In this document: piece by piece, positions 27,001-36,000 of the stretch | Position numbering within the stretch: position 1 is the stretch's first letter | How the letters are laid out: every line of letters starts with the position of its first letter | From: an uncultured Acidimicrobiales bacterium | GTDB taxonomy: Bacteria; Actinomycetota; Acidimicrobiia; Acidimicrobiales; UBA10347 | Assembly: GCA_943788915.1 (NCBI GenBank) | Contig: CALSSD010000005.1 | Coordinates: forward strand, 19,565-83,564 | DNA length: 64,000 nt | Reading direction: 5' to 3' | Position numbers: made by a program

Positions 27001-30000
27001 GCCCGAGGCTCCTATTCGTTCCTTGCCATTGACGCCAAGCCAGAGGATCGTGAGGTCATCGCCCAGCCCACCGGCGGCAGGCTGTTCTTCGCTGGCGAAG
27101 CAACCCACTCAGACTTTCCGGCCACCGTGCATGGTGCGCTGCTGTCGGGTCAGCGTGCCGCAGCGGAAATCATCGCTCAAGACGTCGAGTCGGTGATCAT
27201 CATTGGCGCAGGTGTAGCCGGGCTCGCCGCTGCCAAACATCTTGTCGCAGCCGGACGTGACGTTCAGGTCCTTGAGGCGCGCGATCGAATCGGAGCCGCG
27301 TTTGGACTGACCGCTCGCTTGGTGTCCCCCTCGATATGGGTGCGTCATGGATCCATGGTGTTCGCGGGAATCCACTAACTGACCTCGCCGACGAACTGGA
27401 TATCAAACGGGCAACAACCGACTACGGCAACCACATCGTGCGCGACGCTCAGGGACGAATCGTTGATGAAGATGATCTACCCGAGGACTTTGAGGTCGTG
27501 ACCTCGATCGAGCACGAGTACGCAGCCGATCATGCTGAACTCTCCCCCCAGGCCGACGATGAGGGCGATGAGTTCGGCGGCGGCGATGTACTTTTCCCCA
27601 GCGGATACTCAACGCTGATACGAGGCTTGGATACCGGGTTCCAGGTCAACCTCGGGGCCGAGGTTGACCTGGTCGACACGACCGGACCTACCGTCGGAGT
27701 CCATACGGCCGATGAAACATTCGCAGCAGAAGCGGTATTAGTTACGGTGCCTCTCGGCGTGCTCAAGGCAGGCACAATCAACTTTGTGCCCGCGTTAAGT
27801 CCAGCCAGGCTCGGAGCGATCGACCGGCTCGGCATGGGACTCCTCAACAAGGTCTCTCTGCGCTTCCCATCGGTCTTCTGGGATGAGGATGCCGATCTCA
27901 TTGGCTACGTCGGTCCGAAGCGGGGTTACTTCGCCGAGTGGTTAAACATTGCCAAATACACCGGCGAGCCCATCCTTGTGGGATTCAACGCATCAAGCGC
28001 TGCCGACGAGATCGAAGAACTCAGTGATACCGAAGTCATCGCGCAGGCGATGACAGCGCTTCGCAACATGTACGAAGGCTGACCTTGCGATCGTCCAGAC
28101 CCACTCGACTACGACCACGCTCCCGCCTGCGCACCAACCCACCACCAGCGAAACCGCCGAGAACTTGCTGCTCACAAAACGAGGCGGGCGACGATTTCAC
28201 CGTCCTCGATTTCGCCGGTGGGCTCGAACCCCATCGATAGATAGAGCGGCCCAGGTGACCCCACACCTGGATTCCATGTGACGGTGATTGACTCACTTCC
28301 CCACGCTTTGGCCTGATCGATCACGGCCCCGAGCACCTGTTTGCCGATTCCTCGACGTTGATGCAGCCGATCGATCAGAAGCCGCCACAGGTGAGGCTCG
28401 GGATTCGCTTCGGTTGGTTCCTGCATCATCACAAAACCGACTGGTTCACCGTCGGCATGAATGACCCGGGGCCAGGGCACAACCCGGGGGTCTCCAGGCT
28501 TGCCGTCAAAGCCATGTTCGTAGGGAGGCACCGCGACCTGGGCCAGCGAAATCACGATCGGGGTGACCATCCGCTCTTGTGAACGGTGTGTTCCGAGTGT
28601 GATCACCTGACGCAGACCCGTGGGGTACGGCTCCACGAGTTCGATTGTCGAAGGACGAGTGCGTGGTCGTGAGTTCCACTCGGAGCGCTGCGCCGGGGTC
28701 ATGCCATACAGCAGGTCATCGGAGACCTCGTCTTCGATCCAACACGCGTTCTTGGCATGGCCTTCGTACACGAAACCACACGTCTCAAGCACCCGGGCCG
28801 ACCGATGATTGTCAGGATGCAGCATGGCGTAGGCACGCGAAATATCTTGGACATCAAAGAGCCAATCGAGCACGCCGGTAAGGGCCTCGCTTGCGAAACC
28901 CCGACCCCAATAGGCGGGTGTGATCGAATAGCCGACGCCTGAAGTGCGGCCGTCGTCTTCAAGGAAGATGTTGATGTCGCCGTAGATAATTGAGTCGGTG
29001 GGGTCGGCGATCGTCAGCATCCACCCCGAGTCGACTACGGGATCGTCACTCGCCATGGACCGCTCGATCTGCGTCTCCGCTCGCTCGAGCGAATACGGCA
29101 TCGGCCAGTCCTGGAGCTCAGAGACAACCGGGTCGGCTCGGCGCTCGAACAAGGCCGTGGTATCTGAGACGCGAGCCGGCCGCAGCAGTAGCCGCTCCGT
29201 GGAGATGGGTGTGAACATCTGTGCAGTCTCGCACCGCGCCCCGCACCAGCGTCACGATTTGTTCGTTCAGGGCAGTCGGTACGCCTCGGGGAACTCTTCG
29301 ATTGTTTGCTCGGTACGACCCAGGAGGCTGAGCGCGTGCTCGACGACGGAGCGTTGGCGTTCGCCATCACCGGGGGCTCCGAGCGGTCGACCCATCGGGT
29401 GTTGGGTAATCAGGCTTCGGCTTAGACCCATGAGTTCGGGTATGTGGCCGAACGACTTCACGTAAACGCTCACTGTTGGCATGCCGGCTTCTTCCATTGC
29501 TCGCTGAACGTGTCCCACGGACACGTGACACACCGGTCAAATAGGTATGAGGAGCACCGCGTCGGCGCCCTGGTCTTTGGCGACCTGGGCCCAGGCGGGG
29601 CCGTACGTGCGCTTGATATGACCCTGCGCGGTTGCCCCCACGAATGAGTACGCGTTCTCGGTCAGACTTCCGATCACTCCCGCATCCACCAGCGAACGAA
29701 GATGTTCGAGTGGCAACACCACCTGGGGATCGATTGCCGCCGCTTGCACCGGATAACCACCGTGTCGAACACGAATGTCAGCCGCTGGTGTGTCCACAGG
29801 AATTGCCGACAGGCTTGCTTCGGATCGAACGAATTCGACGATGCGACTCTCGGCTTCGGCCTGGGTCATGTTGGTTTCGCCGAATGGTTCGGGATCGTCG
29901 CCTTCGACGAAATGACCGCTCGACGTCAGCACCATGATCTTCGCTTCGTTCAGCGGTTTAGTGAACGCCGTGAGCGGGGTGTCGTCCTTGCGGTGGGGAA

Positions 30001-33000: not shown

Positions 33001-36000
33001 GACAAGCACCTGGCCGAGTTCGATCGCCCGACCCACGTGATCAGGTGCGTGCTGGAGTTCGCCCACACGGCTGGTGACATTGGTCGAGTCCACGCAGATC
33101 ACCGCAGCCTGGTCAAGGACGTCTGCTGCCAGTTCTCGTTTACCAGTCATATCTGCGCCCATAGCGATCACATGCGTCCCTGGGGCGAGCATCGATGCAA
33201 ACACAAGCGGTTCCCGAGACGGCGTGCAACAAATCACGATGTCGGCATCTGCGACTGCAGCTGCGACCGAGTTCGCAGGTTCGGCCTGATTCTCAGCAGC
33301 AAACCGTTCCGTCGTTTGTGGCGTTCGACTCCAAACCGCCACTGACCCAAGAGCGAACGCGTCTCGTAGTGCCGCGACTTGGAAGGCAGCCTGGAAGCCA
33401 CCACCGAGAATGGCCAGCCGAGCTGCCTCCGGGCGAGCGAGTGCGAGAGCACTAACGGCGGAGGCCGCAGCGGTACGCATCTCGGTCAACCATCCACCAT
33501 CACGAAGTATCGCAACCGGTGCTCCCGTGTGGGCATCGAGCACTGCGGTGAATCCGCTATTGCCACCGCCGGGGAACCCACCGGTCGCCGACTTGAACGC
33601 AATGACATCGCCGCCGAGATAGGCACCCTTCACATGAAGTTCACCTCCATGGTCGAGCTTCATAGCCATTTCGTCGGGTGCGATGACGCCGCCCGCTGCG
33701 AATGCACAGAATGCGTCGTGTACGGCTTGGCGTGCATCGGCAACCGACACAACGTCTCGAATGACTGCTTCCTCGATGATTCGCATCGGCCAAGTGTGGC
33801 AGCTATCCCGCTCCGCTAGGACCACATCCGGTGACGATGTCGTGACGTAGTGTTGCCACATGCCCCTTGAGCCACCTCTCGGACTCGACATCGTCGATCA
33901 TATTCAGCAGACACGTGACAGTTATGCCCAGCTCGGCTACGACTCCTACCGGTGGGCCCATGAGCCTGAATCGGCTGCATTCGTGCGCCCGGCGAAGCCG
34001 CTGGCCGAAGCCACGGTTGCACTTGTTGCGTCCGGTGGCGTCTATCAGGCCGGACAGGTCGCCTTCCATCACAAGGACGACACGTCGTACCGACGGATTC
34101 CGACCGACGTGGCCACCGCCGACCTACGCACGAGCCATTTTGCGTACGACATGACCGATGCTCGGGTTGACCCAAACGTGGTGTTTCCCATCGATGCGCT
34201 GCGCGCCATGGTCGACGCTGGCACCATCGGCTCGCTCACTACCCACGCACTGACCTTCATGGGTGGCATCTACTCCCAGCGACGGCTGACCGAAGAACTG
34301 ATCCCGGAGCTGAGCAAGGAAATCGCGGCGATGGAGCCCGATGTTGTGCTCCTCGTACCGGTTTGACCGGTCTGTCATCAGTCAGTTGGACTGATCGCTC
34401 GCCATCTCGAATCACAGGGTTTCCCGACAACATCGTTGTCCTCGTCATGGTCCATCACCGCCAGCGCCAACCCGCCCCGCGCCGCCTTCCTGGACTACCC
34501 CCTCGGTCACACGGCCGGTCAGCCAAACGAGTTGGCCCAACAGATCGAGATCGCTACTGCTGCGTTACAACTGGTCGAGACGGCCACCGAGCCTGGGCAG
34601 ATCCATGTGCTTCCGCACCAATGGCCAACACCATGGAAGGCCAAGGCCCGCGAACTCAGCGACAAACGCAGCGAACGATTCGATACCCCGCAGTACGAGC
34701 GGGCAGACGACGAGCGAGCCGCGGCTGCGACCTGATAGCGCTCACTGTCGATAAGCAGCTGTATCTGCGCGGTCAGCTCCGACGTGTTCAACTCTATGGT
34801 CGGCCGCTAACCCGAGCCATCTCGTCGGCATCGCCCTGACCGGATATGTCGATGCACCGCACGTCGTCTCCAAACTCGTGTTCAGGCGCTGCGACCGCAG
34901 GTGCACTTGCAGTGCTGCGACCACAATGAACCCGGCCCGGCCGGTCTCCGGCTGACGTCGCCAGACACCGCAACAGCCTACGAACCCACGAACACCTCAC
35001 GAACCGATGGAATGGCGGAACGTTCTACGGCGTCACCGGGTTACTACTCATGACGCACTGATCCATGGGATCATCACACAGAACAGAACGACAAGGAGAC
35101 GGCTAATGGCGACACGAGGCATGCGGCATGCAGTGCTGTGGGTACGTGATCCTGCAGCCAGCGCTGCGTTCTACGAACAAGCCCTTGGGCTTCAGATAAA
35201 AACAACCATGGGCGACGCCGTGTTCATGTCTTCACCGGACTCGGGCACCGATCACGACTTGGGCTTGTTCAAGGCCGACGGCCCCAAAGCAGGCCAACGG
35301 GGTATCGGGCTCTACCACATCGCGTGGGAAATCGGAACGCTGGCAGAACTGGTCGAAGCTAAGGAACGGCTGACCGACATGGGCGCCCTGGTTGGCGAAA
35401 ACAACCATGGTGTGAGCCGGAGTTTGTACTGCCAAGATCCCGACGGCATTGAGTTCGAGATCATGTGGGAACTACCACTCGATCTGCTCGACGCCGATGC
35501 ACCGTCCAATATCCCACTTGACCTCGACGGCGACATTGCTCGATGGGGCGCGGACCGCTCCAGCCGCGGCGCCTGACCTCGCCCGATGTTTAACCTCGAC
35601 CAGCCAGGCCGGATCGAGGACAAACGCGACCCAACACACACAGAAGCAGCCGTGGTCGAGCCACACGTACCGTCGACAACCCACGATCGGTGGTGGTTCG
35701 CTCTCGTCGGGCTGGTAGCCGGGCTTGCGGTCGCACTGGTGGCGTGGGTCGCCTGGCCCGAAGGTGATGACCGGATCACTGCGGCCGATGTCGACAGGGC
35801 CATCGAAAAGGCATTGGCCCGGCCTCTCGACCAAGCCGCAGCGTCGCTCGCCTATGACCAGGCCGTCGAGTCGATCGTCGCGATACGTGCCATCAGGAAC
35901 AACCGCGTCTCGGCCGACGACGATGGCATCACAATTGGCACCGGCGTCATTATCAATGAACAAGGCCAGATCCTGACCGCCAACCATGTGGTGTTCGGAG

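Follow-up and report, generated by a model that had tools for sequence, protein, structure and literature searches.

The window analysed here, a stretch of 64,000 nucleotides from an uncultured Acidimicrobiales bacterium (a label that fits the nearest named locus, L067, at 79% sequence identity), carries two genes, C5a and C5b, that contain an in-frame TGA (Table 1) and whose products resemble the B subunits of D-proline and glycine reductase, and the question is whether these are subunits of such reductases at all and, if not, what kind of enzyme they represent. They have relatives in the same genome: as a preliminary description had stated, there are seven distinct paralogs, each with an in-frame TGA at the catalytic position of PrdB, to which a six-frame read-through search adds three strain-duplicate copies.

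Table 1. Features of the two PrdB-like loci, as positions in the window (C5a and C5b correspond to C5:48831-49838 and C5:53424-54299 of the contig); the MerB-like gene is given in contig coordinates.
Feature	Position	Strand	Remarks
Double GNAT acetyltransferase gene	28172..29218	-	downstream of C5a; not a conserved neighbour
C5a, PrdB-like selenoprotein gene	29267..30274	-	335 aa, Sec246 in P-I-U-P-V-C; TIGR04483 99.6 bits
C5a SECIS-type stem-loop	29508..29526	-	14-32 nt from first TGA base
C5a Sec codon, in-frame TGA	29537..29539	-	one internal TGA read through
Short-chain dehydrogenase gene	30358..31161	+	not a conserved neighbour
PLP-dependent enzyme gene (PALP, threonine-dehydratase-like)	31826..32791	-	
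Ornithine cyclodeaminase/mu-crystallin family gene	32887..33786	-	divergent from C5b
C5b, PrdB-like selenoprotein gene	33860..34735	+	291 aa, Sec169 in P-V-U-P-V-C; TIGR04483 148.8 bits
C5b Sec codon, in-frame TGA	34364..34366	+	one internal TGA read through
C5b SECIS-type stem-loop	34377..34395	+	
Glyoxalase/VOC family gene	35106..35576	+	
MerB-like selenoprotein gene	C10:327067-327741		Sec at both metal-binding positions

That the genes are Sec-encoding is supported by sequence evidence of several kinds. The in-frame UGA aligns with Cys or Sec of homologs, as had been claimed before for paralogs, with C-P-x-C in 106 of 120 full-length homologs, and in 80 loci related to C5b the site is TGA in 73 and Cys in 6. 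An independent contig (X2 record 18) spans the C5a TGA and shows no difference there. The previously reported hairpins hold up as well: all seven paralogs satisfy a SECIS rule in one register, as do 25 of the 35 core genes, compared with about 9-10% of the controls (130 of 1489 TGA codons that end long genes and 107 of 1044 Cys codons). Across the paralog stems, 47 of 49 cells are paired and five of seven pairs have changed on both sides, which is compensatory. Judging from this conserved sequence, SelB would read the hairpin 14-32 nt downstream, and Sec would be inserted at the TGA. The tRNA-Sec gene (C8:141994-142083), SelA and SelD are all recovered as listed in the preliminary description, with selA, selC and selD intact; selB exists as well, but the description did not mention that this only copy in the genome (C5:465856-467569) has a one-base frameshift in the assembly, which counts against a functional reading of the paralogs as stand-alone selenoenzymes. 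If selB were truly broken in this strain, the paralog genes would not be recoded, and indeed the extra base sets it apart from all five genus relatives. These five nevertheless have an intact selB, comparable frameshifts occur in other genes that have an intact copy on a duplicate contig and also in the second ResA-like gene, and neither the Sec genes nor the hairpins show decay, so that a real loss of SelB is highly unlikely and the frameshift is probably an assembly error. Four marine metatranscriptome runs of one study contain the window stretch, but as these are contigs only and cover genes and spacers evenly, they do not demonstrate expression.

The family assignment needs some correction. 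The motif P-x-U-P-[VL]-C had been ascribed to all paralogs and is present in six, the seventh (C5:357936) having P-A-U-P-L-D, and of the Pfam GRDB matches claimed for seven of seven, six of the read-through proteins reach E<=0.01 and only four lie above the gathering score. The best family for all seven is TIGR04483 (PrdB), with scores of 75-149 bits against a cut-off of 300 that none passes, whereas TIGR01917/01918 are matched below cut-off and with the C-terminal half only. On these sequence comparisons, the paralogs are better described as PrdB-sized and PrdB-like than as GRDB/GrdB-like. They belong to the GrdB/PrdB superfamily by their shared catalytic domain with Sec or Cys at a strand-helix junction, and with both true PrdB and GrdB they have a core in common (T57, D104, P110, G121, G135, U169, E184, G187, T190, R207, P214, G216). 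With PrdB, as represented by TIGR04483 and by Terrisporobacter and Ligilactobacillus plasmid loci (L150, L151), they share the single domain of the same size, the Sec position and the core residues, at 24-32% identity along the whole domain, but they have P-x-U-P-x-C/D and not A-G-U-G-T-C(-H), terminal extensions, an aerobic host, and no prdA, prdD or prdE. Among themselves the paralogs are 23-51% identical and form five deep clades outside the PrdB clade, according to a quick tree with three PrdB reference sequences in which C5a sits on a long branch. The terminal extensions differ from subfamily to subfamily, that of C5a consisting of about 85 N-terminal residues that are retained in its orthologs (42-61% identity across ~300 aa). 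GrdB, GrdF and GrdH (PF07355) and the fluoroacetate protein FarB have a homologous C-terminal catalytic domain (20-27% identity), but the paralogs lack the ~200-residue N-terminal domain, and thus the two-domain architecture of ~430 aa, as well as GrdE/GrdI, GrdA and GrdC. Structure prediction for C5b is confident (pLDDT 95); sequence searches for a relative of solved structure gave only an unrelated best match (E 0.017), and in fold comparison a paralog model retrieves only generic domains of the Rossmann-like type (best Z 8.8, rmsd 3.3, 138 aligned).

The absence of PrdA/GrdE and GrdA noted earlier is borne out by zero matches of PF09338 and PF04723 in the genome, and queries with PrdA, PrdD, PrdE, GrdE and GrdC also found no match there, the PrdA query being sensitive enough to detect GrdE at E 1e-9 to 5e-4. 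It had been feared that this absence rested on an incomplete bin and on the sensitivity of Pfam models, but it is no bin artefact: PF09338 occurs in 5 of 251 genomes of the class, every time beside a canonical B subunit, and in 3 of 61 genomes, again tracking canonical B subunits only, and of the 59 genomes with the orphan type 58 lack it. The earlier statement that these are not glycine or D-proline reductases is therefore supported by the missing PrdA, GrdE and GrdA together with the sub-threshold TIGR04483 scores and the different motif. That the genes might be true reductase B subunits, as database labels have it, draws on TIGR04483 as best family and on a proline-racemase-family gene at C8:226131, but with scores this far below cut-off, separate clades, another motif and all of PrdA, GrdE, GrdA and GrdC absent, this reading is scarcely credible and already largely refuted. 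Another reading is a two-component enzyme to which they contribute the B subunit, the A subunit coming from an unlinked gene of the same genome and either having no relation to PrdA/GrdE or having diverged beyond recognition; all characterised relatives are hetero-oligomers, and unlinked partners are invisible to neighbourhood analysis. However, more than 150 loci from many phyla contain no linked partner subunit, Roseomonas and Haematobacter plasmids carry single family genes without partner-type neighbours, and the subfamily-specific extensions could stand in for a partner, so that we consider a hidden A subunit improbable.

The sequences themselves are less new than the preliminary description implied, as they have been in print since 2008 as 'proline reductase' selenoproteins. 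In the portions consulted, the Sargasso Sea and GOS surveys, which report 42 and 235 selenoprotein sequences, label the family 'proline reductase PrdB' (PMC1088965, PMC2398784). In GOS Dataset S1, UPVCH is found 93 times, UPLCT 23 times and UGTCH not at all, and the set includes long forms with the linker Cys described below and a C5a-like sequence that is filed under GrdB. By the U-P-x-C motif, as established by motif search, and by PF07355-type homology, the paralogs belong to the marine selenoprotein family that Zhang and Gladyshev called 'PrdB'. The surveys used reads and not genomes, and the missing PrdA, the subfamilies and the partners go unmentioned in those portions; nor was any paper remarking on the lack of PrdA found in a search mostly confined to literature outside subscription journals. 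Proline and glycine reductases require a subunit that this family does without, so the label is wrong; genome-wide evidence, including a built-in positive control, now shows this subunit to be absent where proline reductase has been assumed for twenty years.

We favour, with a probability of roughly 45%, that the seven genes encode stand-alone, thiol-recycled selenoenzymes for pre-activated small molecules, and that they represent an old, PrdA-independent GrdB/PrdB branch. The selenolate would be the nucleophile, as in GrdB and PrdB, and as there would be no Schiff base without a pyruvoyl subunit, the substrate would have to come already polarised, most likely as a small carboxylate whose alpha carbon bears a good leaving group, with a different substrate for each paralog. 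The Cys three residues after Sec may resolve an enzyme-bound selenoether or oxidised Sec, and the role of the enzymes in their aerobic host would be to cleave C-X bonds reductively, for catabolism or detoxification and not for energy conservation. There is precedent in that, according to the consulted part of PMC10838667, a GrdB homolog with a pyruvoyl-less partner is proposed to attack fluoroacetate directly, and the single genome of Cloacibacillus porcorum has eight substrate-specific grdB paralogs; the divergence of the paralogs seen here also fits substrate diversification. Against a stand-alone function, the pyruvoyl-independent GrdH/GrdI and FarB/FarE still employ a GrdE-type partner, and against a simple nucleophile model, G, S, A or T replaces Sec/Cys in 11 of the 120 full-length homologs.

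Re-reduction could be accomplished by ordinary thiol carriers, and here the claim that each paralog sits alone fails for two of them. The C8 paralog gene overlaps a glutaredoxin gene, which is found immediately downstream in 18 of the 24 C8-type loci, even at identities as low as 63%, and the C6 paralog is followed by a gene for a CMD/AhpD-type selenoprotein, with the same order in genome G007. Two further paralogs (the long type of C3/C9) have a third Cys that is invariant among the long-type sequences (41 of 41 and 38 of 38) and might serve the same re-reduction. It is located on the linker that leads to an additional C-terminal helical domain, which has no Pfam match and no structural match above Z 4.3. 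Among the matches inspected (13 scanned and 5 read of 150 listed), this domain is seen solely with the family or its fragments, and apparent fusions to other proteins seem to be chimeric gene calls. The same couplings allow for another explanation, namely that the PrdB fold has been re-used for general thiol oxidoreductases, U-P-x-C disulfide, peroxide or sulfoxide reductases without any C-X cleavage. U-P-x-C is nearer to thioredoxin-family motifs than the U-G-T-C of PrdB, which speaks against the stand-alone C-X-cleaving enzyme, the motif P-x-U-P-x-C lies at the strand-helix junction, the other selenoproteins of the genome are mostly Trx-fold or AhpD redoxins, glutaredoxin, AhpD and MsrB occur as neighbours, and there is the monothiol variant U-P-L-D. 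Yet the paralogs keep the whole PrdB substrate-domain core, the subfamily extensions and aromatic residues, which is beyond the needs of a small redoxin, seven deep paralogs suggest distinct small-molecule substrates, and no thioredoxin fold is among the 50 best structural rows, an absence that weighs little; a general oxidoreductase is thus possible, if on the unlikely side. What these enzymes do can be addressed experimentally by way of the coupled glutaredoxin, the invariant third Cys, and Cys-form homologs in cultured aerobes such as those with the plasmids mentioned.

As for the substrate, betaine- or sulfonium-type onium compounds and haloacetates would be candidates, and naming this class of onium/halo-carboxylates amounts to a guess with rather low odds. 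Neighbouring genes give no lead, which counts against the stand-alone enzymes: no conserved neighbour indicating a substrate was found in 80 C5b-type, 54 Acidimicrobiia and 20 further loci, where there is lineage synteny only. The cyclodeaminase and PALP genes next to C5b were dropped as pathway clues, as they are not conserved beyond two genus loci, the cyclodeaminase gene being near the C5b ortholog in just two of those examined. It has also been considered that the enzymes act jointly with MerB-like selenoproteins on organometal(loid) compounds, for instance alkyls of arsenic or mercury, because two loci (L177, L178; deleted remnants in L179 and L180) have a gene for a MerB-like selenoprotein immediately after the C8-type gene and ArsR, ArsM-like methyltransferase (as we read a Methyltransf_31 match) or MerR genes are near 3 of 10 C5a-type loci. 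These links are sporadic, though, and probably confined to one or two lineages, and the MerB-like gene has no PrdB-like neighbour in this genome and in five others of the class, which makes such a role very improbable.

The selenoproteome around these genes is larger than the 31 genes counted before, comprising at least 37 with SelD, GPx, DsbA, a second ArsC, a second ResA-like protein and the MerB-like protein with two Sec residues added; the strain-redundant contig C16 has a further Prx-like gene (2777 +), which is left out of this number, and the candidates C2:178420, C3:187983, C9:14444 and C4:99928 were discarded on the basis of Pfam and genomic context. As had been said, this is below the record, the published top ten in BSepDB having 46-63 genes (PMC13326102) and no Actinomycetota; the known families are shared (UGSC, AhpD/CMD, CFYUT, Trx/Prx/Grx-like, ArsC, DsbA, GPx, rhodanese, SelD, FdhA). 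According to a 2026 review, selenoproteins are rarely retained by aerobes, in contrast to the host here with its heme-copper oxidase, and 37 genes in an oxygen-respiring marine actinobacterium, while no record, run contrary to the notion that a large selenoproteome is typical of anaerobes. In the widest interpretation, a selenoprotein family that ranks among the most abundant in oxic seawater and has carried the proline reductase label since 2005 might be a single-subunit class that cleaves onium compounds (glycine betaine, sulfonium carboxylates, arsenobetaine) reductively with glutaredoxin/AhpD-type recycling, and that marine Acidimicrobiia, within a 37-gene selenoproteome including a two-Sec MerB-like lyase, have expanded into a Se-dependent catabolic toolkit of an aerobe, which taken as a whole we regard as unlikely.

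The MerB-like protein shares with SaoL (NF040728) the MerB fold family and Sec at the site equivalent to Cys159, but it reaches 31.8 bits against a cut-off of 140, does not contain the CU motif and carries Sec in both metal-binding positions; no MerB selenoprotein other than SaoL was found in the literature searched, again mostly outside subscription journals. UGSC, a candidate member of the GrdB/PrdB superfamily, has weak TIGR01917 matches and in hhalign aligns weakly with GrdB/PrdB over 38 columns (probability 13%, E 0.002), with the Sec residues aligned.

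The seven PrdB-like genes of the genome are members of a known selenoprotein family that carries the wrong name, and the finding is well supported. Searched in six frames with read-through, the genome yielded ten matches, seven distinct paralogs and three further copies on the strain-duplicate contigs C21 and C22. The paralogs share 23-51% identity with each other and 24-32% with true PrdB, and the PrdB model TIGR04483 is the best family for all seven over most of the model, with 75-149 bits versus a cut-off of 300. They had been described as Pfam GRDB members with the motif P-x-U-P-[VL]-C throughout; membership holds for six at E<=0.01 but above the GRDB cut-off only for four, and the motif for six, the exception (TGA at C5:357936) reading P-A-U-P-L-D. 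In a quick tree, the base of which is not resolved and in which the window paralog C5a is a long branch, they fall into five deep groups outside the clades of PrdB (support 100) and GrdB. The superfamily core is retained, with A167 and G170 of PrdB/GrdB changed to Pro in all seven. Among 120 full-length homologs, the Sec-site motif is C-P-x-C in 106 and C-P-x-D in one, the Sec position is taken by G, S, A or T in 11, and two were not parsed. The second window paralog, C5b, is modelled (pLDDT 95) as a Rossmann-like alpha/beta domain with Sec predicted where the helix that follows strand 162-166 begins; neither sequence search nor fold comparison of this model found a solved relative. The long type (the C3 and C9 paralogs) has an added helical domain, for which no known match was found, after a linker with a Cys that is invariant in 41/41 and 38/38 sequences.

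A stem-loop lies at equal distance from the TGA in all seven paralogs. A simple hairpin rule of our own is satisfied by all of them and by 25 of 35 core candidates; in the controls, the rule holds at 130 of 1489 TGA codons that end long genes and at 107 of 1044 Cys codons. In the seven aligned hairpin regions 47 of 49 stem cells are paired, with both sides varying in five of the seven pairs and slid controls dropping to 18-41%, the stem having been derived from the same, related sequences in which the pairing was counted. The genome has tRNA-Sec, selA and selD, and its selB is frameshifted; the gene is intact in 5 of 5 genus relatives examined. As other genes of the assembly are also frameshifted while their duplicate-contig copy is whole, the selB frameshift is likely an assembly error. 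In the window, a flavin amine oxidase gene is split in this way, its copy on contig C21 being whole.

Features and their positions (C, contig; L, locus; window, the 64,000-nt stretch)
Feature	Position	Strand	Remarks
PrdB-like C5a	window 29267-30274; TGA at C5:49103	-	335 aa; single internal TGA = residue 246, P-I-U-P-V-C
PrdB-like C5b	window 33860-34735; TGA at C5:53928	+	291 aa; TGA = residue 169, P-V-U-P-V-C
Other PrdB-like paralogs (TGA sites)	C3:180539, C5:357936, C6:189013, C8:85896, C9:174780
selB	C5:465856-467569	+	single copy; one extra base near C5:466200 breaks frame
Flavin amine oxidase	window 27127-28082	+	split
MerB-like	C10:327067-327741 = L031:1568-2242	+	two in-frame TGAs
FdhA-like	C8:207354-209231	-	begins at model position 58
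UGSC fusion (L006)	C3:482897-484642
UGSC fusion (L007)	C10:733530-735218
GPx	C10:56508
DsbA-like	C5:309709
Second ResA-like (WAxxUGC)	C13:166644	+	frameshifted
Prx-like (U-P-P-C)	C16:2777	+	not counted
Proline-racemase family	C8:226131-227732	+

Selenoproteins named proline reductase PrdB have been reported from the sea before, 42 of them (and one GrdA) in the Sargasso Sea survey (PMC1088965) and 235 in the GOS survey (PMC2398784). In Dataset S1 of the latter, the motifs UPVCH and UPLCT are present 93 and 23 times, respectively, and the UGTCH of clostridia is absent, and therefore the published marine family is, judged by these motifs, the one described here. A literature search found no statement that the marine family lacks PrdA.

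Across the class, the family is partnerless. The reported absence of PF09338 (PrdA/GrdE) and PF04723 (GrdA) from the genome stands with zero matches, and queries with PrdA, PrdD, PrdE, GrdE and GrdC gave none either; the PrdA query does detect GrdE, at E 1e-9 to 5e-4. Copies number two to six in all eight genus relatives, and 23 of 61 relatives match the family profile, 20 strongly and three weakly; PF09338 occurs in exactly the three weak ones, at most 2 kb from a canonical A-T-U-G-T GrdB. In the class, with nine candidates scored per genome, kin that are not independent and one unpublished genome (G262) included, 63 of 251 genomes match, all with selA; PF09338 is found in five, each time adjoining a weak canonical match. 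It is missing from 58 of the 59 strong-match genomes, closed single-contig ones among them, and the remaining one (G233) has a separate canonical locus. The family is broadly spread, with 4489 of 8000 scored candidates of a protein search belonging to it, and the 80 best loci span Acidobacteriota, Chloroflexota, Binatia, Entotheonella, Desulfobacterota and Pseudomonadota; their Sec site is TGA in 73 and Cys in six, and no GrdE-like gene was found within the DNA examined there. True prdB stands behind prdA in two of three Firmicutes loci viewed, whereas the Cys-form homologs of Roseomonas haemaphysalidis and Haematobacter massiliensis are plasmid-borne, with neither prd nor grd genes beside them. 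Partners lacking a pyruvoyl group are described for the betaine and the proposed fluoroacetate enzymes (PMC10838667; PMC13188914). That the paralogs work with a hidden partner subunit is improbable; no gene common to the whole family was found across the loci compared. Three Acidimicrobiales (G018, G036, G039; loci L054-L056, L064-L066) have canonical grdE-grdB-grdC-like operons, the GrdB of which reads U-G-T-G-T-R-C.

The C-N bond that Sec attacks in glycine and sarcosine reductase is polarised through a Schiff base (PMC10838667; PMC13188914). A PrdB core without such a partner would either attack a bond that is already polarised in the substrate or be a plain thiol-type reductase. The former is tentatively favoured (probability about 0.45) on the grounds that the substrate domain has been conserved and has split into old subfamilies; the Sec would be recycled through glutaredoxin, AhpD or a third Cys. 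Any substrate class would be a guess from the chemistry of the family and its marine setting.

That each paralog sits alone, as had been claimed, is wrong for two: a family-wide partner is missing, but the C8 and C6 genes are coupled to redox genes. The end of the C8 gene overlaps (GTGA) with a gene for an 89-aa glutaredoxin-like C-G-P-C protein. Of 24 C8-type loci (those of 36 that include the 3' end, several near-identical), 18 have such a gene directly downstream, and another has it upstream in divergent orientation. About 10 nt behind the C6 gene begins a gene for a CMD/AhpD C-x-x-U selenoprotein, the start of which the C6-type stop overlaps in genome G007. With such neighbours, a function as plain thiol-type reductases is possible, but less likely than attack on a polarised bond given the conserved substrate domain. 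The next gene is MerB-like in four of the 24 C8-type loci, and ArsR, methyltransferase or MerR genes are close to three of ten C5a-type loci; organometalloid chemistry is nevertheless very unlikely. New handles for testing the family are now available.

In Desulfobacterales and Rhodospirillaceae loci (L128, L136, L141, L142, L145), a CoA-transferase family III gene is directly upstream of the C5b-type gene. Further PrdB-like Sec subfamilies in Acidimicrobiia (L240, L241, L243-L245, L247-L249) read U-P-D-C-C or P-G-U-P-M-C-H-R; behind the latter lies a conserved gene of ~97 aa that has no Pfam match. A proline-racemase-family gene, possibly a hydroxyproline epimerase, is not linked to any PrdB-like gene.

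Genes were called with a dicodon model, and TGAs that lie in frame between two stretches of coding signal (459 candidates) were supplemented by a hairpin scan (44 rows) and a paralog search; 40 candidates were scanned against Pfam and 37 against NCBIfam. The genome thus counted has 37 selenoprotein genes, a number that Sec close to the C-terminus or in uncatalogued families could escape: seven PrdB-like, six UGSC, five CMD/AhpD, three CFYUT-type AhpD-related, three TlpA/Trx-like, two each of Prx-like, ResA-like WAxxUGC and ArsC-like, and one each of Grx-like, DsbA-like, GPx, rhodanese, SelD, FdhA-like and MerB-like. The at least 31 of the preliminary description are exceeded and were too low; its list lacked SelD, GPx, DsbA, one ArsC, one ResA-like and the MerB-like gene. 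The second ResA-like gene is identified by motif and paralogy only. Four candidates were discarded after Pfam and context checks. A Prx-like gene on the strain-redundant contig C16 was left out; it differs too much from the one at C5:186262 to be its copy. The FdhA-like protein seemingly misses its N-terminal iron-sulfur part, which was not found in the upstream frame. Two UGSC proteins carry a fused domain of ~380 aa that matches no Pfam family, and UGSC and the PrdB/GrdB core are weakly similar around Sec.

The top ten selenoproteomes given for BSepDB have 46 to 63 genes, with no Actinomycetota among them (PMC13326102); older counts are given in PMC1794560. Aerobes seldom keep selenoproteins according to a 2026 review (PMC13188914), and the genome encodes a heme-copper oxidase; selA is present in 173 of 251 class genomes. 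Small marine relatives were reported in 2026 to use Sec, in about five genes each (10.64898/2026.04.03.716425).

The other families counted are already catalogued except for the MerB-like form, which by score is not SaoL (10.1101/2022.07.06.499078); a literature search found no non-SaoL MerB-like selenoprotein, and the deep-Sep paper had no match. The two TGAs of the MerB-like gene fall on the positions of both metal-binding cysteines, and each has an in-register hairpin. The MerB-like Sec family occurs in six of 251 class genomes, with two TGAs in three and one in the other three.
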